DNA from: Candidatus Kapaibacterium sp.
Lineage (GTDB): Bacteria; Bacteroidota; Ignavibacteria; Kapaibacteriales; UBA2268
Direction: 5' to 3'
NCBI GenBank assembly: GCA_963664875.1
Contig: OY761611.1
Location: 1,760,958-1,824,957, forward strand
DNA: 64,000 bases
Below, in pieces: positions 32,878-48,740 of the stretch (its first letter is position 1; each line of letters starts with the position of its first letter). The position numbers and the translations under genes were made by a program. The notes under the pieces were generated by a model. That model did no database searches. It was given only the letters and a program-made list of their open reading frames with translations, and had not been told where the DNA came from.

Positions 32878-34575
32878 TTGGATTCTATCATGGAAGGTAT
32901 TAAAGATACTTCAACTATAAGTCTGAGAAAGATATTAGGAAACGGACTTACATATCTTGTTCCGAAATTCCAAAGGGATTATTCTTGGGAAACGGAGCAC
33001 TGGGATGACTTATGGTTAGACATGATAGATTTATATAATGATGTTGAAACAAGCCATTATATGGGATATTTAGTTTTTCAGACATCAGACAATAAACTGC
33101 ACAAAATTATTGATGGACAGCAAAGGCTTACTACAATTTCTTTACTCATAATTTCTATCTTGAAGAGACTCAAAGAACTTGAAGAGACAGGTATTGATGC
33201 TGAGAAGAATAAACTTAGAAGAGAACAACTTCAAAATAGCTATATAGGATTTATCGACCCTGTTACTTTGATTGCTAAGAATAAATTAGAGCTCAATAGA
33301 AACAATGATGATTTTTACAAACATTATATTGTGCCTCTTGCAAATCTCCCTCAAAGAGGCAGAAATGCCTCAGAAAAGTTAATGAAAGCTTGTTTTGAGT
33401 GGTTTTATAAAAAAACAACTTCTCTATATAAAACCGGAGAAGAGCTAACAAGGTTTATTGAAAAAATAGTAGATAAACTTTTCTTTACGGTTATCACTGT
33501 AGGCGATGAACTAAATGCTTATAAAGTATTTGAGACATTGAATGCGAGAGGAGTTAAACTATCTACGGCTGATTTATTAAAAAACTACCTTTTTTCAATT
33601 GTTGACTCGAATGAGAAAGAAACTAGGAAAGAAGAATTTGAGCTTTTAGAGTACTTATGGAGTGAATTACTCAGGAAGCTCGGTTCTGAGAAATTGCCTG
33701 AGTACATACGATATTACTGGAACAGCAAAAATAAAACTGTAAGAAAAAATGATTTATTCAAGACATTAAAATCTAACATAAAAGATAAAGCAAACGTTTT
33801 TGCATTGTTGAGAGATTTAGTTGAGAAAGCTGATATTTTTGTTGCGATTTTAAGTCCTGAAGATGAGTATTGGAATAACCATACTTTAGAACTTCGCAAT
33901 AGCTTACGAGAATTGAAAATCTTTGGTGCAAAACAACAAATCTCTTTACTTATTTCAGGCAAAAGTAATTTGACTGACCCAAAATTTACTGAGTTAGTTA
34001 AATACTGCTCGATAGTGTATATGAGATATAATATTATTGGTGGACTTAATCCAAATGAGCAAGAAGGAATTTTCAACAAGTTAGCTTTGGATATTCAAAA
34101 CAATAAAGATTATAACAAATCTGATTTTTTGGAAATATACCCATCTGATGAAGAATTTGAAGTAGCCTTCTCAAATAAAGAATTTACAAATACCTCAAGA
34201 AACAACAAAGTTACAAAATACATCTTAACAAAAATAGAGAACTATATCTCACAGGCAGATTTTGATTTTCAGAGCGATAGAAATACGATTGAACATATTT
34301 TACCTGAAAATCCGGATGATACATGGGATATCGAAGATGATGTGCGAAATAGATGCAGATATAGACTTGGCAATCTAACATTGTTAGAAAAAAACAAAAA
34401 TTCGCATCTTAAGAACAAATCTTATGATCAGAAAAGAATTGTTTTTCAGAATTCCAAATTTGCTATAACTAAGGATATTGCGGCAGATTATTCTCATTGG
34501 GGTGAAGAAGAAATATCAAGACGTCAGAATATTCTGGCAAAAAAAGCTAAGACTATTTGGAGAATAAGTTTTTAG
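32878..34575 (+). CDS. DUF262-DUF1524 fusion protein (GmrSD-family putative type IV restriction endonuclease)
   Basis: The N-terminal DUF262 has the DGQQR motif (IIDGQQRLTTISLLI). The C-terminal DUF1524 has a His-Me-finger-like segment TIEHILPENP...LGNLTLLEKNKNSHLKNKSY. Confidence 0.7.
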   Translation: MDSIMEGIKDTSTISLRKILGNGLTYLVPKFQRDYSWETEHWDDLWLDMIDLYNDVETSHYMGYLVFQTSDNKLHKIIDGQQRLTTISLLIISILKRLKELEETGIDAEKNKLRREQLQNSYIGFIDPVTLIAKNKLELNRNNDDFYKHYIVPLANLPQRGRNASEKLMKACFEWFYKKTTSLYKTGEELTRFIEKIVDKLFFTVITVGDELNAYKVFETLNARGVKLSTADLLKNYLFSIVDSNEKETRKEEFELLEYLWSELLRKLGSEKLPEYIRYYWNSKNKTVRKNDLFKTLKSNIKDKANVFALLRDLVEKADIFVAILSPEDEYWNNHTLELRNSLRELKIFGAKQQISLLISGKSNLTDPKFTELVKYCSIVYMRYNIIGGLNPNEQEGIFNKLALDIQNNKDYNKSDFLEIYPSDEEFEVAFSNKEFTNTSRNNKVTKYILTKIENYISQADFDFQSDRNTIEHILPENPDDTWDIEDDVRNRCRYRLGNLTLLEKNKNSHLKNKSYDQKRIVFQNSKFAITKDIAADYSHWGEEEISRRQNILAKKAKTIWRISF

Positions 34576-36857: not shown

Positions 36858-39800
36858 TTATTTGAATGCTTTTTCTAAAAGTCCATCGCCTTTTAGACTT
36901 AATCTTTCGAAGTAATCAGGTACGTCTTTGCCCGTTAGTTTATCTACGTACATTTTTGCAAGGTACTGACCAAGCATAAAACCTTGACCACGAAGACCGG
37001 TAAATAAACCTAATTCAGGATCTATGTACATTCTTGGTTCCACGTAGTAGCCTGCCCAGATCGCCTGGAAACCAACGCTTGATAGCTCAGGTAGCCAATC
37101 CACAAAGACTTCTGAGACTATTCTGAGGAAGTCTTCAGAGTTGATTTTTAAGTTGGCTTTTGCTTCCTGAGGGTCAACTGCAGGTGATGCACAACCTATA
37201 ATCTGTCCTGTTTCTGCTAATTGCTGACCGTAAACTGCCACAAAACCTTTGTAGTTTCTGCGGTCAATAAGCATAGGAAGCGGAATACCATCTTTACCCA
37301 TCATAGGCAAACGACGAGTAATAAATGCCTGATGTTTCACAGGGTACAAGCCTGTTTCCAGACCAACCATTTTAGTAAATTCTTCTGCCTCAGGGCCAAG
37401 TGCATTTATAAAGACTTCAGTTTCATATTCTACATATTCTTTATCGTGATTATGTACCAAAACGTGGTATTTGCCATCTTCTTTTGTTACCTGAATTAGT
37501 TTACAGTCCTCCTGAACCGTACCACCATTTTTGATACCGATTTGTCTGATCAGGTCAACTACTTTGCCCGGAGTAGCCTGCCAGCAGTCTTTAGTAATAA
37601 GGGCCGCCTGATAAGTAGAAAGATTTTGGTTAAATCTTGGAGATATTTCTTTAGCAAAGTCTTTAGGTTCTACCATGTATGCATTTGACCATTGTTTAGA
37701 AGCTTCAAGAGCCTGATAAACATTGTCGTCATGAGCAAATGTTACATAATCGATAGGTCTGTAGTCGATATTTGCTATTTTATCCAATTCTTTGAAAATA
37801 GCAAGGTTATTTATTGCTATGTCTGAGATTTCAGGCAATGAAAACGCAGGGCGACCACCGGCAATATTTCTCCATGAAGAGCCTCTGCCGTAGTTTACCA
37901 AAGTTGGTTCCATGCCTGCTTCTGCCAGATAGCGGAATAAAGCAGAGCCACCGATACCGCCGCCCGCAACAAGTGATTTGACTTTGATTTTTCTGATATT
38001 TTTAGTTGCTACCGGAATTACTTTATGCACAGAACCGTTCGGGTAAAGCTCGCCCATATTTACCTGATTTGACATCGGCCCGCGTGGGGTCGCTTCACCT
38101 ACAATAGTTATGCCGCTGCCTGCAAGCGTCTGTTTCAAACGTTTGATACATCTTTTACCGCGACATGCACCCATACCCAAACGTGTAGTGTGTTTGATTT
38201 CGTCAATTGAGATGAATTTTCTGTCTCCGATAACATCCATGATTGTATCAAGCGTAACATCATCGCAGTGGCAGATGTATTTTTTTGATTCGATATTTTC
38301 TTCATTATCCACAAACTCGACAGGTTCGGGGTAGTTTTCTCTAAGGATAAAACCGCGAGCTTTTACAATTTCTCTACCTTCTAAAGTAGTAGATTTCACT
38401 CTTGCTATATGAGTTTTATTTCCTTTTTTGAATATTTTTTCGATGATTCCTTCGCCAAGTTTTTTGCCATGATTATCAACAAGAAATACTTCTTTATTAG
38501 TTTCAATATCAAATTCGATAGGAAGGAATAACCAGCCTTTTTTGATATTATAACCAAATATGGCTAAGCCCGGGCACTGATAAACGCACTCCATACAGCC
38601 GATACATCTGTCATAATCAATAACAGGTACAGTAGATGAAGAGTTTTTGCTGATAGCACCATGAGGACAAGAGAAAGCACAAGGATTACAAGCAAAACCG
38701 TACAAACAGTCAGCTATAACAAAAGGTTTTTCTAACCTATCTTCATTAGGCATAACAGCTTCTGCGATTATTTTGTGAGGGTGCTGCTGAGAGTCAATAT
38801 ACTCTTTAGAGATTTTTAGATAGTCGTCGTAGTTATAACGCATACCCAAATCTTCCAAAATCTCAAACGCTACCTGCTTGCCCCGAAGTACAGCACTTGT
38901 ACCTTCGCCGATTCTAACGGCATCACCTATGCCATGGCAATCGCGTTTAAATATTTCTTTGCCTTTGATAAGCAAAGCATCATCTGGCACAAGACCTGTA
39001 CAGATATTTATCGCATCGATACCTTTGATAATTTTTTCAGTACCCGGAACAGGTTTGAAGTTTTTGGCTTCAGCAACCACTGCGCCGATGATACCGTCTT
39101 TATTTTCATTTGGAATCGCTTTAACTAAGATATGAGAAAGCATAACAGGAATGCCAAGTCTTCTTACTCTGTTTGCCTGAACAGGGAAACCACCTTCATG
39201 AGGTTGTGCTTCGATAATAGCTTTTACGTTAGCACCACCCTGCATAAGCTGGTAAGAAGTCAAGTAACCGATATTACCTGCACCAACTGTCAAAATGTTT
39301 TTACCAAGAAGAGTAAGCTCGTCATTCATCATTTTCTGAACAACTGCAGCAGTATAAACTCCCGGTAAATCATCATTTTCAAAAGAAGGCATAAACGGTA
39401 CTGCACCTGTAGCAATGACAAGCACATCTGCTTCTACATAGTAGATTTCATCTGTTTTGATATTTTTAACAGCTAAACGTTTGCCGTCTAAAATGTCCCA
39501 AACAGTTGAGTTCAGGAAGATATTTTCATGGCTGGCGCCGGCTAAAGTAGCAGAAATATCAAAACCACGCATACCGCCAAATTTCTTCTCTTTTTCGAAG
39601 AAGAAGAACTGGTGTGTTTGCATATTAAACTGACCGCCAACTTTATCATTATTATCGATAACAATATTATCTACGCCAAAGTTATTTAACTCTTCGCGTG
39701 CTGCCAAGCCTGCTGGGCCGGCACCGATGATAGCGACAGTAGTTTTATAAATTTTTACTTCATGATTATTTTTATAGTCCGAAACGCTCGGAGTATAATC

Positions 39801-40085
39801 TTTAGGAATCTCTTCAACATTACTAATGTTATCAACTTTAGTAATGCAGATACGTTTGATTTGACCATCTACAAGCATTTCGCAGGCGCCACATTTTCCG
39901 ATGCCGCATTCCAAGCTGCGTTTACGGTTGTCTAAGCTGTGGCTGTGAACGGGATACCCCGCTTGATGCAGTGCCGCAGCTATTGTTTTGCCTTTTTGTC
40001 CTTTTACTTTGTTTCCCATATAAGTAAAAGTAACTTCAGATGATTCCTGTATCTCTAATATTGGGTGTGATGTGATTTGATACAT
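36858..40085 (-). CDS. Multidomain fused flavo-iron-sulfur oxidoreductase: 2Fe-2S ferredoxin-like, FAD/NAD(P) pyridine-nucleotide-disulfide-oxidoreductase-like, 4Fe-4S dicluster, BFD-like [2Fe-2S] and DAO-type FAD oxidase domains (HcnABC / proline-dehydrogenase-complex / opine-oxidase-like)
   Basis: An N-terminal CGIGKCGACEM (Fer2-like) is followed by VAIIGAGPAGLAAREEL and LTVGAGNIGYLTSYQLMQGGANV. Two 4Fe-4S motifs, CNPCAFSCPHG and CIGCMECVYQCPGLAI, come next. The BFD-like segment is CHCDDVTLDTIMDVIG...GMGACRGKRC. The C-terminal DAO-like motif is VAGGGIGGSALFRYLAEAG. Confidence 0.7.
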   Translation of the reverse strand: MYQITSHPILEIQESSEVTFTYMGNKVKGQKGKTIAAALHQAGYPVHSHSLDNRKRSLECGIGKCGACEMLVDGQIKRICITKVDNISNVEEIPKDYTPSVSDYKNNHEVKIYKTTVAIIGAGPAGLAAREELNNFGVDNIVIDNNDKVGGQFNMQTHQFFFFEKEKKFGGMRGFDISATLAGASHENIFLNSTVWDILDGKRLAVKNIKTDEIYYVEADVLVIATGAVPFMPSFENDDLPGVYTAAVVQKMMNDELTLLGKNILTVGAGNIGYLTSYQLMQGGANVKAIIEAQPHEGGFPVQANRVRRLGIPVMLSHILVKAIPNENKDGIIGAVVAEAKNFKPVPGTEKIIKGIDAINICTGLVPDDALLIKGKEIFKRDCHGIGDAVRIGEGTSAVLRGKQVAFEILEDLGMRYNYDDYLKISKEYIDSQQHPHKIIAEAVMPNEDRLEKPFVIADCLYGFACNPCAFSCPHGAISKNSSSTVPVIDYDRCIGCMECVYQCPGLAIFGYNIKKGWLFLPIEFDIETNKEVFLVDNHGKKLGEGIIEKIFKKGNKTHIARVKSTTLEGREIVKARGFILRENYPEPVEFVDNEENIESKKYICHCDDVTLDTIMDVIGDRKFISIDEIKHTTRLGMGACRGKRCIKRLKQTLAGSGITIVGEATPRGPMSNQVNMGELYPNGSVHKVIPVATKNIRKIKVKSLVAGGGIGGSALFRYLAEAGMEPTLVNYGRGSSWRNIAGGRPAFSLPEISDIAINNLAIFKELDKIANIDYRPIDYVTFAHDDNVYQALEASKQWSNAYMVEPKDFAKEISPRFNQNLSTYQAALITKDCWQATPGKVVDLIRQIGIKNGGTVQEDCKLIQVTKEDGKYHVLVHNHDKEYVEYETEVFINALGPEAEEFTKMVGLETGLYPVKHQAFITRRLPMMGKDGIPLPMLIDRRNYKGFVAVYGQQLAETGQIIGCASPAVDPQEAKANLKINSEDFLRIVSEVFVDWLPELSSVGFQAIWAGYYVEPRMYIDPELGLFTGLRGQGFMLGQYLAKMYVDKLTGKDVPDYFERLSLKGDGLLEKAFK

Positions 40086-40448
40086 AAAATCTTTTTTAAT
40101 TAATGGCTATTCTAAATTTATATAGTATAATAAATTAGCCAAATTATGGGATACAGCCAAGACTTAGTCTATGCTAAATATTAAGTACATATAATATCAA
40201 TATCTCAGCTAAAAGCATATAAATAGGGCTAATTTAAGAGATTTTAGCGACTAAGCTATCTTATCAGCTAAATTTAGTTTTTGTGAGATTTTGTATATTG
40301 GAAGAAATTAGTACAATAAAAGCAAAATAAGAAAAAATATAGATCATTGGAGAAAGAGAGGAAAGCAAATTTAAAGATATTGATTTACTTTATATTCTTA
40401 CGGGTTCATAATGCAAGTCTGAAACTTTACTCGTTGATGTCGGCATCC

Positions 40449-41021
40449 CTATCGAGTCCTCATTGCATTAATCCAATATCTCAAGGCAGGGAAAAACGCA
40501 AATCCTAAAGCTATTTTCAACTCTGTATAAACAGATATTAAGTATGTATCTACAACTACATATGCTAACAAAGGCAAGACTTCAACTGAAAAAGTAAGTA
40601 CTGATTTGATGTTTAGATAATCTATTTTTTTCAAAACAAACTCAGTAACAAGCATACCTAATCCAAAAAAGACATTTATTTCAAATATTGCTTTTGCGAT
40701 AGAGTATAGATTAAAACTATCAACAAAAGATAATAGAATCAGCTTCTCTGCAAAGAGCGCAAGCATTAACATATACAGTGCTATATCTCTTGAGTAATTG
40801 ATTTCTTTCATAGACAGCGGAAGCCGCTCTAATCTCGCTTTCTCAAAATTGAAATACAAACCATAAAAGACTATAGGGTATGCAACAATTTCAATTAACT
40901 CAAATGCAGATCTAATGTACTCACCGCTAAACCAAGCTAAAGTCATCAGGAACGGATATAGAAAAAACAAAGCATAGTAGTTGTTTCTTGTCCGGAGGAA
41001 ATATGCAACAAGCGTAAACAT
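40449..41021 (-). CDS. Small polytopic membrane protein, paralog 5 of 5 (ABC-2-type permease-like)
   Basis: The likely start is the ATG at 41019-41021, which gives MFTLVAYFL and has a GGAGGA SD 7 nt upstream. That start forms a TAATG 1 nt overlap with paralog 4. The protein has about 6 hydrophobic helices and shares the LPLS(M/F)..(I/L)(N/Y)(Y/F)..(D/K)I..Y motif with paralogs 1 to 4. Confidence 0.55.
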   Translation of the reverse strand: MFTLVAYFLRTRNNYYALFFLYPFLMTLAWFSGEYIRSAFELIEIVAYPIVFYGLYFNFEKARLERLPLSMKEINYSRDIALYMLMLALFAEKLILLSFVDSFNLYSIAKAIFEINVFFGLGMLVTEFVLKKIDYLNIKSVLTFSVEVLPLLAYVVVDTYLISVYTELKIALGFAFFPALRYWINAMRTR

Positions 41022-41638
41022 TAGAATGTCCTCCAATTATTCATCTTCGCTATCATATAGTCAGCAATTGTGATTATTATAAGAGGACTTACAGAAAGTA
41101 GAATTAGAAGCAAATGTTCTTCGCTAAATCCAAAGTTCCCAATAATTATATCTTTTAGATTGGTCAGAAGAATGCTGTAAACAAATAATCCAACAACAGC
41201 ATAAGCTGATGCAGTTAGTACAGGGAAGTTCTTTTCTTTCACCATCAGCAGTCTGCTCAGGAAAAAGGAGATAAAATACATAGAAAATATTTGATTTGAT
41301 ATTGTACCTATATGCAGCTTATACTCCGGATCAAAATTCAATTCAATTATAATAAAGCTTAGAGCATATATTGTCATATAGAAAAACATACTCAGTAGCT
41401 TAGCAAGCCATATTTTCTTAGTATCAATTGGAATATCTGCTTCTATAGCGTTTGTTTTGCGTCCGAAAAAATCCTTAGAAAAGATAAAGAAGTAAGCAAA
41501 AATCATTGCAAGCGCGATAACAGAAGCTACTTCTTTAGTCTCAAAAACAAAAGTACTTAGAACCCCAATGAGTATCGATAAAAGCATCACCAAGAGCGGC
41601 TCTTTCGCAGTAATATAGTATTTTATTATTAGTAACAT
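41021..41638 (-). CDS. Small polytopic membrane protein, paralog 4 of 5
   Basis: The N-terminus MLLIIKYYITAKEP is family-typical. About 6 transmembrane helices are predicted. The conserved GFSEEHLLLILLSVSPLIIITIADY segment is present. A 1 nt overlap links it to paralog 3. Confidence 0.6.
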   Translation of the reverse strand: MLLIIKYYITAKEPLLVMLLSILIGVLSTFVFETKEVASVIALAMIFAYFFIFSKDFFGRKTNAIEADIPIDTKKIWLAKLLSMFFYMTIYALSFIIIELNFDPEYKLHIGTISNQIFSMYFISFFLSRLLMVKEKNFPVLTASAYAVVGLFVYSILLTNLKDIIIGNFGFSEEHLLLILLSVSPLIIITIADYMIAKMNNWRTF

Positions 41639-42267
41639 TATAGATTTACCTTATATCTTTTTGCAAAGTAAACTACCACAAAATCTAATATTGATATTAC
41701 TGATATTGGTAGTAAGTACATTAGAAGCAAAACCGGATGCTCTCTATCAATACCGGCATAGGAGCTTACTGCATTAATCAACTTGTAGAAATTTAATGTA
41801 TAAATTCCATAAATAATGAACAGCCCAAAACAAATCGATAGAACTTTTACATGACCAAGTTTTCTGTACTTCCACTTGCTCAATAAAAAAAGCATAAAAT
41901 ACATCATAATATAAGAGTGTATAGAGCCCTCTGTGGCATGCCACACATTCCCGAAGTAGTCTGATCTCAATACTATCTGAAGCAGAATTGTAATTGAAGA
42001 AAGGATGTAAAAACTGATATACTTCGCCATCCATAAAGTATTAAAACTCACAGGTATAGACAAATTCAAATCTGAGTTTGAAAAATCTGAGTTTGAGCTT
42101 TTGCCAAAAATTTCGAAGTAAGGTGCAATCAGAATTAGCATATAAAAATCAATAGCTGTACGCTCAAGGAATACAAGCTGATCAAGAGAGAATACTAGTA
42201 TCATGCCCAAAATAAAAGCAGGGAGACCTGTTCTGCTTTTAAGGTAATGTAGAATAATCTGTAGCAT
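41638..42267 (-). CDS. Small polytopic membrane protein, paralog 3 of 5
   Basis: The N-terminus is MLQIILHYLKSRTGLP. The conserved segment is GIDREHPVLLLMYLLPISVISILDF. A 1 nt overlap links it to paralog 2. Confidence 0.6.
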   Translation of the reverse strand: MLQIILHYLKSRTGLPAFILGMILVFSLDQLVFLERTAIDFYMLILIAPYFEIFGKSSNSDFSNSDLNLSIPVSFNTLWMAKYISFYILSSITILLQIVLRSDYFGNVWHATEGSIHSYIMMYFMLFLLSKWKYRKLGHVKVLSICFGLFIIYGIYTLNFYKLINAVSSYAGIDREHPVLLLMYLLPISVISILDFVVVYFAKRYKVNL

Positions 42268-42899
42268 TATATTTTCACCATGTTATTCTTATTGAAATAT
42301 GCTATCAAGTAATCAGATAGCGTTATTACTAATATGGGTATCAGAAACGATAATAGAATTACAGGATGCTCTCTTCCAAAACCTGTTTGCTGCATTAGCG
42401 TATCCATTAGCCACTTGAAATTCCAAAGATATACTGTAAAAAAGAGAAGCACACCAAAAATAACAGTCAAATATTTATAGCTTCCGGGTTTGAAAAGCAT
42501 CCATTTCCCCATCAAAAAAAATATCAAATACATTATCATATAGCCTCTTACTGCTCTCTCTGTCTCCTTCCAAAAATCAATTTCAAAATATGAAATCATA
42601 AGTAGATGAATAGCAATTACTAATGCTGAAAGCACATAGAAACTGATAATCTTTGCAGCCCAAATTTTATTAAATCCGAGAGGCAATCTCAAACCCAAGC
42701 CGGTATAGTCCTTATTTGCACCAAATGGCTTGGCGAACATATCCAAATATGGGAACATCAACACAACACTTATGGATGTAATTACTCCCACTTCTTCGAA
42801 CACAATAAAGTCGAAAACAAACATAACAGCGATAGCCAGTAAAATAACGGGAATACCGCCCCGATAGAACAAATAATGCTTAATAATCTGCCACATCAC
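42267..42899 (-). CDS. Small polytopic membrane protein, paralog 2 of 5
   Basis: The N-terminus is MMWQIIKHYLFYRGGIP. The conserved segment is GFGREHPVILLSFLIPILVITLSDY. A 4 nt overlap links it to paralog 1. Confidence 0.6.
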   Translation of the reverse strand: MMWQIIKHYLFYRGGIPVILLAIAVMFVFDFIVFEEVGVITSISVVLMFPYLDMFAKPFGANKDYTGLGLRLPLGFNKIWAAKIISFYVLSALVIAIHLLMISYFEIDFWKETERAVRGYMIMYLIFFLMGKWMLFKPGSYKYLTVIFGVLLFFTVYLWNFKWLMDTLMQQTGFGREHPVILLSFLIPILVITLSDYLIAYFNKNNMVKI

Positions 42900-43510
42900 G
42901 CCCTCGTTAATCTGTTTCTGTTTAGATAGGCTGCACCAAAGTCAAAAGCAGTAAAAACCAATAAAACTAAAAGGTTTATGGGTATTGCAGTTGCAGAGTT
43001 TTCTTCATTACTCAAGAGATTTGTTTTAAATAGTAGTACAAAATAAGCTATACACAAAATCATATAAGCAAGATTAGGCAAGTTTACTACAGTATGCTTA
43101 TCTCTTAACCATACTACTTTACCAATAAATGAGATGACGACATATATCATTCCATAAACCCAACTCAAAGCGGCAGCTCCTTCCTGAATATCATTACGTT
43201 CATGATACATAACGATAAAAATTACAACTGTAGCAAAGGCTAAATAGATATAGAAACTGATAATTTTTGCGAAATACAACTTGGAAAAGCTAAGCGGCAA
43301 GTTCCGGGTGATACTGTCAATTTTTTCTTTTCTCCACATCCCGTCAAACATCAATAGATATGGCATCACCAATCCTGATGTGAGCAAGCCGAAACTCTTG
43401 GATATTTCATATCCTAATAGGTTCGAATAGACTAAGATAAATGCTAAGATTCCGGCAATGAGAATCAAGCCGTACCTATAGGTCATATAATATTTGATTA
43501 CGTTTAGCAT
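42896..43510 (-). CDS. Small polytopic membrane protein, paralog 1 of 5
   Basis: The track extends this ORF to 43603. The more likely start is the ATG at 43508-43510 (MLNVIKYYMTYRYG), which has a GAGG SD upstream and lies 2 nt after the ATPase stop. The protein shares the LPLSFSKLYFAKIISFYIYL motif with its paralogs. Confidence 0.55.
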   Translation of the reverse strand: MLNVIKYYMTYRYGLILIAGILAFILVYSNLLGYEISKSFGLLTSGLVMPYLLMFDGMWRKEKIDSITRNLPLSFSKLYFAKIISFYIYLAFATVVIFIVMYHERNDIQEGAAALSWVYGMIYVVISFIGKVVWLRDKHTVVNLPNLAYMILCIAYFVLLFKTNLLSNEENSATAIPINLLVLLVFTAFDFGAAYLNRNRLTRA

Positions 43511-43512
43511 AA

Positions 43513-44370
43513 TTACCTCAATCGTATAAGTACGATTTCCTGAATAGTCATATAGTGAGTATCGCGAATGCCTATATTGAGATTGGCGAGATGGCGCTTG
43601 CACTCTTCAAAATTATTTGTTGTTATAGTAAAGAAGTCGGTTTTGTCTTCCTGCTTTTGGATAAAAGGCTTGTCGTCCATGCGGTTTGTGATGTTTACAT
43701 CAATCCTTCGCCAGTTTTCTATCATATCTTCTTTGTACTCGTTAGCCACTATTTTTCCGTTATCGAGCAAAGTAACCTTGTCAACCATTCTCTCAATCTC
43801 AGGAATAATATGAGTCGAATAAATAAGCGAGTGTTCTTCGTTTTCCATATACTCAAAAAGTAGCTCGGCAAAATCATCTCTTACTATCGGATCCAATCCG
43901 TCCATAGGCTCATCTAAAAGCAGAAGTTTAGGCTGCTTTGCCAGCTCGCCTGCGATAGATAGCTTCATCTTTTGCCCCTTCGACATCTGATGTATTTTGT
44001 CATCCAAATCGAGCCTGAGCACTTTCGCCACACGGTGACACAAATCCCATGACCAAGTGGGATAAAACGAAGACAAAAACTTCAAATGCTTCATTGGCTT
44101 CACGTAGTAGAACTTCGGATTGCTGTCGATAAATCCTATTTGGCTTTTCCATTTTTCGTGGTCTTTTTTAGTATTATAGCCAAGCACCTCTATTTCGCCT
44201 CTGTCCTGCGACATCAGTCCGGCGAGGATATTCAGTGTAGTAGTTTTGCCGGCACCGTTTCTGCCGAGGTAAGCCATAGCCATACCTTTTTCGAGTTCCA
44301 AATCTATTGGGCCTAACTTGAATTTTGAAAAATCAAGAGAAGTGCCGCTAATTTTAAAAGAAAAATCCAT
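43513..44370 (-). CDS. ABC transporter ATP-binding protein
   Basis: The Walker A motif is GRNGAGKTTTL. The ABC signature is LSKGQKMKLSIAGEL. The Walker B motif is LLLLDEPMDGLD. The gene overlaps the GntR gene by 1 nt. Confidence 0.85.
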   Translation of the reverse strand: MDFSFKISGTSLDFSKFKLGPIDLELEKGMAMAYLGRNGAGKTTTLNILAGLMSQDRGEIEVLGYNTKKDHEKWKSQIGFIDSNPKFYYVKPMKHLKFLSSFYPTWSWDLCHRVAKVLRLDLDDKIHQMSKGQKMKLSIAGELAKQPKLLLLDEPMDGLDPIVRDDFAELLFEYMENEEHSLIYSTHIIPEIERMVDKVTLLDNGKIVANEYKEDMIENWRRIDVNITNRMDDKPFIQKQEDKTDFFTITTNNFEECKRHLANLNIGIRDTHYMTIQEIVLIRLR

Positions 44371-44762
44371 TATTTGCTCTCCAAAATCTTATTCAAAGTT
44401 TCCAAAATCTTTGATTTATTTATGCCCTCGCTTATAGCCTTATCTATCAAAGGCGAGACAGCTGACTTAAAATCCGTCAGAGCCATAGACTCTTTTGAGT
44501 TTTCACTTATGCCACTGACAAAGTAACCTTTGCCTACCCGGGCATAGATTAGCCCCTCTGCCTCTAAAGTTTCATAAGACTTTTTAACAGTGATGACACT
44601 GACCCGAAGCTCTTTTGCCAGCTTGCGAATAGACTGCAAAGCTTCGCCTTCGCCTATCTTTCCGGAAAGAATAAGCGAGCGAATCTGAGAGTATATCTGC
44701 CGATGAAGCGGCTCAGAAGAGCTTTCTGTTATATTTAAGTGCATAGATTTCCTATGTGTCAT
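44370..44762 (-). CDS. GntR-family (YtrA-like, short) transcriptional regulator
   Basis: The 130 aa protein has a winged helix-turn-helix: IYSQIRSLILSGKIGEGEALQSIRKLAKELRVSVITVKKSYETLEAEGLIYARVGKGYFV. Confidence 0.8.
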   Translation of the reverse strand: MTHRKSMHLNITESSSEPLHRQIYSQIRSLILSGKIGEGEALQSIRKLAKELRVSVITVKKSYETLEAEGLIYARVGKGYFVSGISENSKESMALTDFKSAVSPLIDKAISEGINKSKILETLNKILESK

Positions 44763-44763
44763 T

Positions 44764-44788
44764 ACTGTATATAGACAATATATACAGT
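44764..44788. promoter_or_regulatory. Perfect 10-5-10 palindrome, the candidate autoregulatory operator of the GntR operon
   Basis: ACTGTATATA-gacaa-TATATACAGT begins 2 nt upstream of the GntR ATG. Confidence 0.55.
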
Positions 44789-45114
44789 TGTCGAATTATT
44801 TCCAAAAATATTTTTGTAAAATTCAATTTTTTGTAGATTTAGCAAAAGTTGGATATTGGGAAGGAAGAGGCTGTTACATGAGTCAAAATTTGCATTGTAC
44901 CTCTGAGACAGCTTCGAATAGGTAATGAAGACTTGGGAAATTTAAAGGCCAATTTAACTTGATTGTTTGAGATGTTATCTAACTAATATGCTTATAATAT
45001 CCAGTAACGCTATATGTAGTTTTTATAGATTATATTGCACATAGCTTTAAATTCTTGACTTAAAATATAAAAAGTATATTCACTTCCTCCTAACACCTCA
45101 ATCCAAGACTAAAT

Positions 45115-46743
45115 TTACATTTTCCTGTATTTTCCATCTTTTAATTCCAATTGCAGATACCGGAGGTAGCTATCTTCCGCAAATTTCGTTTGATGCAAAA
45201 AATAATCTTTGTGAATTGGCAATTGCTCCAAATCGCCTCGGAGCACTTTGTGTGTGTTGAATATCTTTTGGAAGATAAAATTTATGATTTTACTATTCAG
45301 CAAATCGGCAAGCTGACTGTGAGTGATACCAGCGTCCTCGTGCAATATCAGCATATTGGCACTATTTAAAAAAAAGCTTTGCTTTCTGTCGCATACAAAA
45401 GACAGTTTCGAGGATATAAACTTATAAATCAGCTTCTCTTTAGCCTGATAAAGATGAATTGGAGCTACCTGTTGGTACAAGCTCAAATCTGCAGGTATGT
45501 AATTGGAAGCATTTTTCAAACCACCTTCGCTTATGTCTGCCCCTTTGTAAACAGGGATATAACCCGCTTGGTTTTCTGACTGTAAAAATTTAGAGTTACT
45601 TCCAGTTACAATACCCATGCCCCATTCGGCTCTACTTTGCAAAGTAATATGCGGCTGATTGTAAATGTGTTCAATGATTTTACTATCCTCGACAGAACAG
45701 AAAAAATTAAAGATAGCCTTAGGATTTTGTTTGAAAGATTCGCGTTCCCTAAAGTGCGAATAATCTGCTCCTTCGCAGAGAATATCATGCTTTTCTTTTG
45801 AGCATTTTTGCAGAGTGATTGCCTGAGCTTTTGTAATCAGCCCGCCAAAACATTTCCCATAATCTTTCATTTTCAATATTTTATTCTGCAATGCTTTGTT
45901 GCGGGCGTCTTCAAATATTTGAATATTGAAAAAAGCTTCCTGCAGTAAAAATCCTAAATACCCACCCTCTTTCAATGACTTTATCGCTGCAAAGAAAAAC
46001 AGGGAACTCGTGTCATTGCTTTTTCCGGAAGCAAAATAATTAGATAATTGTACTTTGCTTTCTGCATCAATCTTTTTTCCCCATGGCGGATTGGTAAAAA
46101 TCAAATCGAACTGCAAATCTGTCTGAGTTATATGCTTCAAAAAATCAGCATTTTGTATATTTTTACATTCTTTCCCGGTTTTTTCCAATATTCTTTGTTT
46201 GGCTATAGCTACTGCCACCGGATCGGTATCAAATCCGTAAATATTATCAGGAGAAATTCCCAATTCTAATGCTCTCATTAGAAAATTGCCGGAACCACAG
46301 CAAGGATCGCAAAATGTCAGTGCTGAGAAATCGGGCAAAAGCTCAACGCTTAACATATCTTCTACAACATCAAAAGGAGTGTAATAAATGCCTTCTTTAT
46401 TGCGAAAAGAGTCCGAAAGTTCATTTTCGTATTCCGAACCTAATATTTCCAAATCTGACTCGCCTCTTTTCAGCCTTGCAGTAATGGCTTGGGCAAGTAG
46501 ATTTTGATTGTGCTTGTCCTTGACTGATTTGTTAGCTCTGTTGTTGAGTTTATAAGTCCCTGCTACTTCATGCAGAAATTTCTCAAGAGAAACTGCACAC
46601 ACCATTCCTTTGGAAGTCTGAACCAAATACTTCGTTTTGATCCAATTACGGATAGTGGCTACTGAGACTTTAGCCTGCTTGGCTGCTTCTTTAATAGGTA
46701 TTTCCGTGACCTTGGGATTGATAGAATTTTTCGCAGGTTGCAT
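45115..46743 (-). CDS. N6-adenine-specific DNA methyltransferase (gamma-class, NPPW motif) with an N-terminal helix-turn-helix
   Basis: Motif I is FCDPCCGSGNFLMRALE. Motif IV is FDLIFTNPPWGKK. The N-terminal AKQAKVSVATIRNWIK is an HTH. A target-recognition-like region of about 250 aa lies at the C-terminus. No restriction endonuclease gene is adjacent. Confidence 0.8.
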   Translation of the reverse strand: MQPAKNSINPKVTEIPIKEAAKQAKVSVATIRNWIKTKYLVQTSKGMVCAVSLEKFLHEVAGTYKLNNRANKSVKDKHNQNLLAQAITARLKRGESDLEILGSEYENELSDSFRNKEGIYYTPFDVVEDMLSVELLPDFSALTFCDPCCGSGNFLMRALELGISPDNIYGFDTDPVAVAIAKQRILEKTGKECKNIQNADFLKHITQTDLQFDLIFTNPPWGKKIDAESKVQLSNYFASGKSNDTSSLFFFAAIKSLKEGGYLGFLLQEAFFNIQIFEDARNKALQNKILKMKDYGKCFGGLITKAQAITLQKCSKEKHDILCEGADYSHFRERESFKQNPKAIFNFFCSVEDSKIIEHIYNQPHITLQSRAEWGMGIVTGSNSKFLQSENQAGYIPVYKGADISEGGLKNASNYIPADLSLYQQVAPIHLYQAKEKLIYKFISSKLSFVCDRKQSFFLNSANMLILHEDAGITHSQLADLLNSKIINFIFQKIFNTHKVLRGDLEQLPIHKDYFLHQTKFAEDSYLRYLQLELKDGKYRKM

Positions 46744-47044: not shown

Positions 47045-47527
47045 TTGACACAACAAAAAAGCAAAAAATATATCAAAGGAGATTTGAAAATGACAATGAT
47101 TAAATTCGACCCGGTTAGACATTTTGAGAATATGACTCGCAAAATGCAACACATAGCCAACGAGGCTGAAAAAGGTTTTGTATTCGAAAAAGGTGGTTTC
47201 AATCCGAGAGTTGACATCACTGAATACGACAACAAAGTAGTGGTCTATGCGGAAGTGCCCGGTTTGGCAAAAGAAGACGTTAAAGTATCGGTAAACGAAG
47301 AAAGAATTTTGACTATCAAAGGCGAAAAAAAGAAACCAGAGCTTGCTGAAGGCGAATCGCTCATCCGCATGGAACGCTCTTTTGGTGAATTCTCCAGATC
47401 ATTTATGCTCCCTGAAGATATTGATTTGGAAAACATCAAGGCTTCTTTCAAACATGGTCTGTTAGAATTGACTTTGAGCAAAAAAGAACCCGAAGAGCCA
47501 AAAGAGATTAATATCACAATCGAATAG
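47045..47527 (+). CDS. Small heat-shock protein (Hsp20/alpha-crystallin family), copy 1
   Basis: The alpha-crystallin domain reads PRVDITEYDNKVVVYAEVPGLAKEDVKV...GLLELTLSKKEP. The likely true start is the ATG at about 47090 (MTMIKFDP), which has an AAGGAG SD. Confidence 0.9.
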   Translation: MTQQKSKKYIKGDLKMTMIKFDPVRHFENMTRKMQHIANEAEKGFVFEKGGFNPRVDITEYDNKVVVYAEVPGLAKEDVKVSVNEERILTIKGEKKKPELAEGESLIRMERSFGEFSRSFMLPEDIDLENIKASFKHGLLELTLSKKEPEEPKEINITIE

Positions 47528-47714
47528 TTTAAATAAGAGAGTCCGGTGTTTGACAGACAACCCCATAGCAAAGACATTAGACAGATGTAGCTCGTTTTCA
47601 TAGCACCAGTATATTAAAAGAAACAGAATGACAGTATATCGGCATCGGACTCTTCTTTAACAAAAAGTATTAAAGAAAATAAAAAAAAGCAAAAAATAAA
47701 AAGGAGATATAAAA

Positions 47715-48164
47715 ATGGCAGTAGTAAGATTTGATCCTTTCAGAGGATTTGAAAGAATAAATAAGAGAATGGGGCAATTTGTTGACGAAATGGAAAAAGG
47801 TTTTAGAGTAGAGTATGGATCATTTGCCCCCACGATTGACATAGTTGAAGACGAAAAAACTTTGAAGCTCTTCGCGGAGCTTCCCGGTATTCCGAAAGAG
47901 CAGGTCAAAATCACTGTAAACGAAGACAAAGTGCTTATAATCAAAGGCGAAAAGAAAAGATGCGAGGAAGAAACTGACGAATGCAAGGAAAAAGCTTATA
48001 TCAGAGCAGAAAGAAGTTTTGGTGAGTTTTCCCGCTCTTTCCAGCTACCGGAAAATATCAATACCGACTCAATCAATGCTAAATTCGAAAATGGTGTGCT
48101 AAGCATATCTTTGAGTAAAAAAGAGCCGGTAAAACCAAAAGAAGTTGAAGTAACGATAGACTAA
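47715..48164 (+). CDS. Small heat-shock protein (Hsp20 family), copy 2
   Basis: The sequence reads PTIDIVEDEKTLKLFAELPGIPKEQVKI...GVLSISLSKKEP. The SD is AAAGGAG. Confidence 0.9.
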   Translation: MAVVRFDPFRGFERINKRMGQFVDEMEKGFRVEYGSFAPTIDIVEDEKTLKLFAELPGIPKEQVKITVNEDKVLIIKGEKKRCEEETDECKEKAYIRAERSFGEFSRSFQLPENINTDSINAKFENGVLSISLSKKEPVKPKEVEVTID

Positions 48165-48287
48165 AATTGAATTGATTGTATTTTGTTCAGGTCTCGAACA
48201 ACAGCAAGGAATAAAGAATCTTAAGTTTTTTACCCAAAAACAAATTGACCAAATAGTAATGTTCAACAACCTAATCGGAGGTGTATT

Positions 48288-48740
48288 GTGACTTTAGTAA
48301 AATATGATCCGTTTACCGGTGTAGATGGCTTAATCCGCAGAATGGACAGATGGATGGATGGCTTTAACAGAAGAAGCATGGTGTTTAATACATCAGCATG
48401 GATGCCTAAAATTGACGTACACGAAGAGGCAGATAGATTTTGGATTTCTGCGGAACTACCCGGCATAGCAAAAGAAGACGTTAAGGTAAAAGTAAACGAC
48501 GACAATATGCTTATCATCTCCGGCGAAAAGAGAAGCGTATTTGAGGAAAATGATGAAAAAGATGATAAGCGTCTGATTCGCTCTGAAAGATCTTACGGCA
48601 GTTTCACGCGCTCATTCATTTTGCCTGACAATGTTGATAAAGACAGCATCAAAGCAAAATATGAAAACGGCGTGTTGAATATGGAAATATTGAAGAAAGA
48701 ACCGGAAAAACCAAGCGAAACAGAAATAACTATAGACTAA
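48288..48740 (+). CDS. Small heat-shock protein (Hsp20 family), copy 3
   Basis: The sequence reads PKIDVHEEADRFWISAELPGIAKEDVKV...GVLNMEILKKEP. The start codon is GTG, with an SD of GGAGGTG. Confidence 0.9.
   Translation: MTLVKYDPFTGVDGLIRRMDRWMDGFNRRSMVFNTSAWMPKIDVHEEADRFWISAELPGIAKEDVKVKVNDDNMLIISGEKRSVFEENDEKDDKRLIRSERSYGSFTRSFILPDNVDKDSIKAKYENGVLNMEILKKEPEKPSETEITID

Follow-up and report, generated by a model that had tools for sequence, protein, structure and literature searches.

A putatively YtrA-regulated operon with one ABC ATPase and a variable array of putative minimal ABC-2 permeases in Candidatus Kapaibacterium

A stretch of 64 kb from contig OY761611.1 of Candidatus Kapaibacterium sp. 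(64,000 nucleotides, referred to below as the window) contains an operon on its minus strand (44788-40449) that begins with a palindrome and continues with the genes for a GntR-type regulator, an ABC ATPase and five small membrane proteins, P1 to P5. With moderate confidence, we interpret the operon as encoding a self-repressed, probably inducible exporter of the ABC-2 (type V) group in which one ATPase is shared by alternative permeases. Sharing of a single motor is suggested by the presence of only one ATPase gene, by canonical relatives that have one permease gene, by an array size that varies and is odd in the window, and by the conservation found on the predicted cytoplasmic face of the membrane proteins. 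The gene structure, the paralogy, the conservation of the putative operator, the variation in copy number, the purifying selection and the asymmetry of conservation are shown by the data below, and from these we infer the ABC-2 fold, the sharing of the ATPase, alternative assembly, inducibility and the class of substrate. The module is best described as a putative ABC-2 exporter under YtrA-type control, the minimal permeases of which come from a family without earlier annotation and form an expanded array of variable size.

Operon layout, putative operator region and conserved components

The seven minus-strand genes are tightly joined, as a sequence-only reading of the window had proposed, and an independent gene caller applied to the public contig called them identically. 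The regulator gene (44370..44762) encodes 130 amino acids from the ATG at 44762, compared with 124 from the ATG at 44744 that the gene caller uses as the start. It is linked through a TAATG with a 1-nt overlap at 44370 to the gene of the 285-residue ATPase (43513..44370), a protein with a C-terminal extension of about 65 residues. The ATPase gene ends with TAA (43515-43513), followed by a 2-nt spacer and the ATG of P1 at 43510, with a GAGG 5 nt upstream of this ATG. The five permease genes abut, the reading frames of all five are intact, and their products are 190–209 residues long. P1 (42896..43510, 204 residues) is a head-type paralog and is followed by the middle-type paralogs P2 (42267..42896, 209 residues) and P3 (41638..42267, 209 residues), the latter being nearest to P2 (36% identity, E 3e-47). 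P4 (41021..41638, 205 residues) is nearest to L003_m8 from another Kapaibacterium array (27%), and the tail-type P5 (40449..41021, 190 residues) is the most diverged member and the last in the array. Further TAATG overlaps are present at the P2/P3 (42267), P3/P4 (41638) and P4/P5 (41021) junctions. All of these junctions are as first described, with the exception of P1/P2, which had been given as a 4-nt overlap (GTGA). This junction reads GTGATG, and because the N-terminus of the family, MWQIIKHY, and the gene caller both favor the ATG at 42896 as the start of P2, the overlap is corrected to 1 nt (TGATG).

The intergenic region 5′ of the operon is 326 bp long (44789-45114) and ends in a conserved promoter/operator block. 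The block starts with TATTTTTG (44803..44810, minus strand), which fits TAnnTTTG, the published consensus of the Bacteroidota −7 promoter element, and is thereby a putative element of this type. A perfect 10-5-10 palindrome, ACTGTATATA-N5-TATATACAGT (44764..44788, no strand assigned), has arms that are 100% complementary and is separated by 1 nt from the regulator's first ATG at 44762. It is present as one copy in the window, compared with 0.01 expected by chance. The block as a whole, AAATAT(T/A)TTTGGAAA..ATTCG.CAACTGTATATATTG..TATATACAGTAATGACAC, is kept in seven loci; farther upstream, the DNA is not alignable. Six of the seven loci have unchanged palindrome arms and L005 has a single substitution in them, while the spacer varies at two positions. 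The sequence-only reading had placed a perfect palindromic operator at the start of the regulator; the palindrome itself stands, and its role as a putative operator for the YtrA-type regulator is plausible because it is conserved across the seven loci. A scan for sigma-70 promoters gave matches at chance level only, a terminator scan gave nothing convincing 3′ of P5, and an Rfam scan of 39900-45300 gave no match.

The regulator carries a GntR winged helix-turn-helix domain at residues 20-82 (PF00392, E 7.1e-14, 51.7 bits compared with a cutoff of 27). It is matched end to end in phmmer searches by YtrA-type structures of 113–134 residues, namely 4HAM, 6SBS, 4R1H, 3BY6, 3NEU and 2DU9/2EK5, the last of which we take to be the structure of C. 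glutamicum Cgl2947. Together with the domain match, these full-length alignments to short structures bear out the initial assignment as a YtrA-type GntR protein. The YtrA subfamily is defined by a very short C-terminal region and a total length of about 120–130 residues, as cited in PMC5080381, where the Cgl2947 structure is also cited, and the regulator agrees with this definition with 124–130 residues and no FadR, HutC or MocR effector domain.

The ATPase is the sole nucleotide-binding gene product of the operon and contains an ABC_tran domain (PF00005, E 1.8e-24, 87 bits compared with a cutoff of 25) in which the catalytic motifs are all intact, including the Walker A motif GRNGAGKT, the signature MSKGQ, the Walker B motif LLLLDEP and the H-loop STH. 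Its top NCBIfam models are PmtA, DrrA and GldA, every one of them below its cutoff, and its nearest relatives of solved structure are nucleotide-binding domain 1 of ABCA, NosF and Rv1218c. PmtA, DrrA, GldA, NosF, Rv1218c and ABCA are each known to work with membrane domains of the ABC-2 (type V) group, and by sequence the ATPase belongs to the ABC-2/type V group. When scored with the equivalog models of the staphylococcal Pmt system (NCBIfam NF047563 and NF047565), the regulator reached 72.1 bits against a cutoff of 200 for PmtR and the ATPase 167.3 bits against a cutoff of 350 for PmtA, both far below the equivalog level. The ATPase also stayed below the cutoffs of TIGR03740, of the LanFEG type (E 2e-30, 106 bits compared with 310), and of the ATPase models of the energy-coupling factor (ECF) transporters (106 and 96 bits compared with 330 and 315).

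Five diverged membrane proteins and their predicted fold

By pairwise BLASTP, P1 to P4 are clear paralogs (E 6e-6 to 3e-47, identity 18–36%). The best pairwise E value of P5 is 0.004, and this protein joins the others only at the profile level, where P5 and its orthologues align with a profile of the other paralogs over 162 columns (hhalign 96.8%, E 2.8e-10). The earlier description of five diverged paralogs is upheld, with P5 far more diverged and not an equal member of the set. Of the motifs that had been proposed as shared, the N-terminal M..IIKYY and LP.SF..W.AK hold up and account for the columns of highest conservation in the family, whereas G..REHP is confined to P2–P4. Searches of P1 to P5 against Pfam, including its ABC2_membrane families, NCBIfam and PADLOC gave no meaningful match. 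The best of 23 family members against ABC2_membrane_4 is P0021 (identical to L004_m7), which matches at the LP motif with E 2.7e-5 and 24.7 bits, compared with a cutoff of 27; others reach only E 0.08 and 2.6. The family profile gave no match to PDB sequences at E values up to 10, and a Foldseek search of the PDB gave no significant match.

To this family belongs the P2 structure predicted by AlphaFold2 (AF2) from 23 family sequences, with a pLDDT of 83.4 and a pTM of 0.79. The model contains helices at residues 2-11, 15-32, 38-54, 75-103, 108-134, 140-158, 160-171 and 178-208, which correspond to an N-terminal amphipathic helix, six transmembrane (TM) helices and, inserted between TM5 and TM6, a short helix on the outer side. 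Lysine and arginine residues, counted over 40 paralogs, number 363 inside and 57 outside, which fits the predicted topology with both termini in the cytoplasm (N-in/C-in). The estimate of about six helices per protein in the sequence-only reading agrees with this model and with the charge counts. The predicted architecture, with N-in/C-in topology, six helices, an amphipathic helix and an outer helix, has the features expected of an ABC-2 permease. The tail-type P5 lacks the outer helix between TM5 and TM6, and in its AF2 model (pLDDT 64, residues 1-69 below 50) the order of helices is the same. This model is poor and was kept out of the fold search, so the membership of P5 rests on the hhalign comparison. 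Considering the AF2 model, the lysine and arginine counts, the match of P0021 and the ATPase relatives with a single permease, there is moderate evidence for filing P1 to P5 as putative, highly diverged minimal ABC-2 permeases, the tests of membership in this class being positive in part.

The conservation of the family is unevenly distributed, with a mean column conservation of 0.46 on the cytoplasmic side compared with 0.32 on the outer side (Mann-Whitney p 3e-10), and the recognized motifs of the paralogs coincide with predicted cytoplasmic elements. Compared with their counterparts in L002 and L003, the ATPase is 79% identical and the regulator 85–86%, whereas the best-matching permeases share 27–44% identity. 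This difference in divergence and the asymmetry in conservation argue for a common interface combined with a diversified outer part. The permease genes adjoin the ATPase gene in every locus, and it is this adjacency, with the conservation of the cytoplasmic face, that supports a putative ATPase-permease complex.

Distribution, variation of the array and genomic context

An exhaustive search with a hidden Markov model (HMM) among 1.84e9 representatives found 25 representatives of the permease family, and a word-indexed search of 5.8e9 proteins gave nine matches; the family is extremely rare and is restricted to a few uncultured lineages. The loci of relatives were traced with the ATPase as query and are from Candidatus Kapaibacterium, a Chlorobiota-labelled metagenome-assembled genome (MAG) and an uncultured-bacterium MAG. 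Contigs traced from the family matches are metagenome contigs of close relatives, for part of which a taxon is assigned. With no Pfam or NCBIfam model for its proteins, this small number of representatives, and distant ATPase relatives that have one permease, the five-copy array is as unusual as had been supposed from the sequence.

The number of paralogs varies from 5 to 10 between the arrays, and relatives do not uniformly share a fixed five-gene heteromer. The window has five, L002/L006 have six intact copies and one internally deleted copy, L003 and L007 have ten each, L004 has ten slots, one of which is cut by an IS3-like insertion sequence (IS) element, and the close relative L010/L012 has at least seven. 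In this close relative, the ATPase and P1 orthologue genes are separated by an additional copy, and the P3 orthologue is followed by a further P3-like gene. Its ATPase is 96.5% identical to that of the window, and the difference in copy number even at this distance argues for alternative assembly of the permeases. The damaged copy of L002 (L002 10550-10973) has an internal deletion that splits it into reading frames of 73 and 79 residues, and the interrupted paralog of L004 lies at L004 16408-17563. Whole subfamilies are present in some relatives and absent in others, and the order of subfamilies is constant along the arrays, with head types followed by middle types and the tail type last. The nearest relatives of P1 are the first-position genes of other arrays (44% identity to L002_m1), and the tail type is single-copy and the final gene in every Kapaibacterium array examined (window, L002, L003, L004 and L007).

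Ratios of nonsynonymous to synonymous substitution rates (dN/dS) calculated against the close relative L010/L012 are 0.07 for the ATPase, 0.14 for the regulator, 0.19 for P1 (L012), 0.10 for P2 and 0.21 for P3 (L010), and, judged by dN, the rate at which the permeases evolve is about 1.5 to 3 times that of the ATPase. Because the reading frames are intact and the ratios of the permeases lie at 0.10–0.21, we regard the permeases, from their sequences, as functional genes under purifying selection and not as decaying copies; pseudogene decay was ruled out by the same intact frames and low ratios. In L012, the extra copy x and m1, the P1 orthologue, are identical over the first 21 nt. In L010 (2498-3492), the adjacent P3-like pair m3/m3′ is a mosaic in which protein identity falls from 97% (residues 1-30) to 34% (residues 91-122) and DNA identity from 93 to 56%. 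Both patterns speak for recombination among the paralogs at their conserved 5′ ends, and in the mosaic gene conversion or recombination appears limited to the 5′ part. A switch of the invertible or shufflon type was rejected, as the paralogs are far too diverged and no sign of such a switch was seen among the paralog genes, where no dedicated repeat scan was run.

Outside the Kapaibacterium-type loci, the identity of the ATPase is at most 42%. Seven more distant ATPase relatives were inspected, and four of them have the same layout with another permease family, comprising 4–5 proteins of 209–244 residues. Four permease paralogs follow the ATPase in L015 (a KSB1 MAG) and in L016, five in L019, and in the P0041 contig, a protein-only record, five small membrane-protein genes follow it. 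The other three relatives have a single permease (L020, L017/L018 and L021). The KSB1-type ATPases align over their full length with that of the window at 35–39% identity, and the accompanying paralogs carry the helix M..I.KAE at their N-terminus and, at around residue 70, an LP motif. The link between this second permease family and the Kapaibacterium family is weak (hhalign 29%, E 6e-4, collinear from residue 1; best BLASTP E 7e-4). Several KSB1-type loci contain an additional GntR-SpoIIE gene or a large ABC2_membrane_3 permease, which in L016 is present together with a second ATPase. The GntR-SpoIIE gene encodes an unusual domain combination, a GntR domain fused to a SpoIIE/PP2C phosphatase (about 370–510 residues), and is positioned directly upstream of the YtrA-type regulator (L015 6059-7588, L019 182-1294 and the P0041 contig). 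In the literature on tandem ABC-2 permease arrays, PF13346 and ABC2_membrane_5, no description of such arrays was found. Both permease families are without a Pfam or NCBIfam model, and their genes have consequently been left as hypothetical proteins in the records examined.

In the window, the module is flanked by a methyltransferase gene on one side and a large flavoprotein gene on the other, and in other genomes it is followed by genes for OmpA-like outer-membrane proteins. The gene directly upstream of the operon encodes a 542-residue N6-adenine methyltransferase with Eco57I and TaqI_C domains (45115-46743, minus strand), and three tandem HSP20 small heat-shock genes (145, 149 and 150 residues) are located at about 47090-48740 on the plus strand. 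Next downstream of the array and on the same strand, after a gap of 363 bp with no recognizable terminator, is the gene for a fusion flavoprotein of 1075 residues with Fer2_4, Pyr_redox_2, 4Fe-4S, BFD-like 2Fe-2S and DAO domains (36858-40085, minus strand). A gene of the GmrSD type (modified-DNA nuclease) is found a few kb downstream, beside uvrB at about window position 34575 and below, and with the methyltransferase gene possibly makes up a small defense neighborhood. In L002, two Y1-type (IS200/IS605) transposase genes (L002 5002-6137) lie immediately 5′ of the operon. The differing context of the module between the window and other genomes hints at mobility, and it was also the reason for rejecting a linkage of the module to the neighboring methyltransferase, HSP20 genes or flavoprotein. 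Assignment as an anti-phage defense system was likewise rejected, since PADLOC gave generic ATPase similarity only.

Proposed mechanism, alternative readings and known systems

In the mechanism we propose, a dimer of the YtrA-type regulator would bind the 25-bp palindrome between the −7 box and its own start codon and silence the seven coupled genes until a signal releases the dimer, with binding and release modeled on PmtR (PMC5080381) and B. subtilis YtrA (PMC8060467, PMC12772383). Expression of the operon would supply a single nucleotide-binding protein together with five distinct minimal permeases of six helices each, and a dimer of the ATPase may act as a common motor that docks onto homo- or heterodimers of any paralog. 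The docking surface common to the paralogs would be formed by the N-terminal amphipathic helix (M..IIKYY), the start of TM3 (LP.SF.K.W.AK) and the ends of TM2 (PY..MF), TM4 (GK) and TM6 (D..Y.NRN), and the diverged outer halves would result in transporters with different specificities. Likely substrates would be hydrophobic or amphipathic compounds, such as membrane-active peptides, which would be removed from the inner membrane. The array would change over time as paralogs are duplicated, deleted or recombined with one another at their conserved 5′ ends.

Several points weigh against this interpretation. Binding of the paralogs to the ATPase and their separate action are deduced from sequence comparisons, and the two sides compared in the conservation analysis were taken from the predicted topology. 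No substrate, toxin gene, peptide precursor or biosynthetic cluster was linked to the module in the loci inspected, and the module contains no adaptor or outer-membrane component, although the host is presumably diderm. The structural part of the sequence-only reading is supported by the comparisons, and its functional part, a module for multi-specificity export, sensing or immunity against envelope-active compounds, stays a hypothesis. The short-term dN/dS values indicate purifying, not positive, selection. The tail type, being single-copy and always last, fits a fixed partner equally well and, instead of being an alternative permease, may form heterodimers as a shared partner. Its constant position, together with the conserved order of the subfamilies and the tight translational coupling of all genes, would also be expected if the five membrane proteins and the ATPase formed one fixed hetero-oligomer with a single function. 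We regard such an assembly as very unlikely, as the copy number varies (5, at least 7, 6 plus one broken, 10, 10 with one interrupted by an IS, and 10), relatives differ in which whole subfamilies they have, canonical relatives have one permease gene and known ABC transporters use two membrane domains.

Among the other explanations, the one to which we give the most credence, although it is still unlikely, is a sensing or signaling device in which the membrane proteins would sense envelope stress or different ligands and, by way of the ATPase, would govern the YtrA repressor or some other process. Proposals for non-transport ABC systems of Bacillus provide a precedent, B. subtilis Ytr affects competence, biofilm formation and wall thickness without a known substrate (PMC8060467), and the GntR-SpoIIE phosphatase fusion lies beside the module in KSB1-type loci. 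However, the Kapaibacterium loci are without a kinase, phosphatase or other signaling partner, the catalytic motifs of the ATPase are complete, and its closest characterized relatives are exporters. Rapid divergence with gain and loss of copies is reminiscent of immunity-gene arrays, and the five proteins of the window have no significant match in Pfam, among PDB sequences or in Foldseek, both of which would suit stand-alone immunity or protection proteins (a poly-immunity array), with the true permease of the ATPase encoded elsewhere or being one of the five; we consider this explanation distinctly improbable. The least probable explanation is a neutral amplification, in which redundant duplicates of the same function drift apart with no specialization. 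The broken copies in relatives, one internally deleted in L002 and one interrupted by an IS in L004, are in line with it, but the five genes of the window are intact and under purifying selection (dN/dS 0.10–0.21), the subfamilies are old (18–36% identity) with their order retained across species, and the divergence is spatially structured.

When the proposed exporter is compared with known systems, the same gene order is found in the canonical modules of a YtrA regulator, an ATPase and a single ABC2_membrane_5 permease (L018 and L021), where the ATPase is 36–37% identical and the permease is of the same size (209–217 residues). These modules have one Pfam-recognized permease, whereas the five in the window are unrecognized and mutually diverged, and the ATPase similarity spans only 78–87% of the query. 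The S. aureus Pmt system (pmtR-pmtABCD) is a fixed set of two ATPases and two permeases, in contrast to one ATPase and 5–10 permease paralogs here. Its host is a firmicute, compared with presumably a diderm FCB-group bacterium for the window, and no genes for peptides resembling phenol-soluble modulins (PSMs) were noticed here. The B. subtilis ytrGABCDEF operon is similar in that an autoregulated YtrA repressor is followed by ABC components that include the paralogous membrane proteins YtrC and YtrD (PMC8060467), and it is induced by envelope-active antibiotics (PMC12772383). Unlike the module described here, it encodes a fixed set of two ATPases, two membrane proteins and YtrF, without an expanded variable array. 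LanFEG lantibiotic immunity systems also combine an ABC-2 ATPase with small six-helix permease paralogs, which protect against membrane-active peptides, but have two permeases compared with 5–10 here; NCBIfam searches gave no MutE/MutG-type permease match among P1 to P5, and no lantibiotic genes were found nearby. In group II ECF importers, a shared EcfAA′T module energizes many small six-helix, sequence-diverse S components, an arrangement that resembles the one proposed here. ECF systems, however, work as importers, depend on a T component and have their S-component genes dispersed through the genome and not arrayed. The ATPase of the window groups with ABC-2 exporters instead, with its scores against the ECF models too low for membership, and domain annotation of the operon genes revealed no T component.

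The usual description of an ABC exporter is a fixed set of two ATPase domains and two membrane domains. We tentatively put forward a broader proposal, which is possible but more doubtful than the shared-motor exporter itself, that the operon encodes a modular type V exporter in which one ATPase dimer serves 5–10 interchangeable minimal permeases, each with its own specificity, that form a library evolving fast and by recombination. Such a system would be the exporter counterpart of the shared-module ECF importers, it may serve as a resistance repertoire against membrane-active peptides or toxins of competitors, and its architecture would occur widely, though without annotation, in Kapaibacteria, KSB1 and other lineages. 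If this is true, type V exporters can be modular, with a specificity that is swappable through a subunit of 200 residues. The arrays would then also offer a compact natural system for identifying universal ATPase-docking residues, in the conserved cytoplasmic motifs, and residues for the choice of substrate, in the variable outer half, as well as for following the evolution of an array by recombination.

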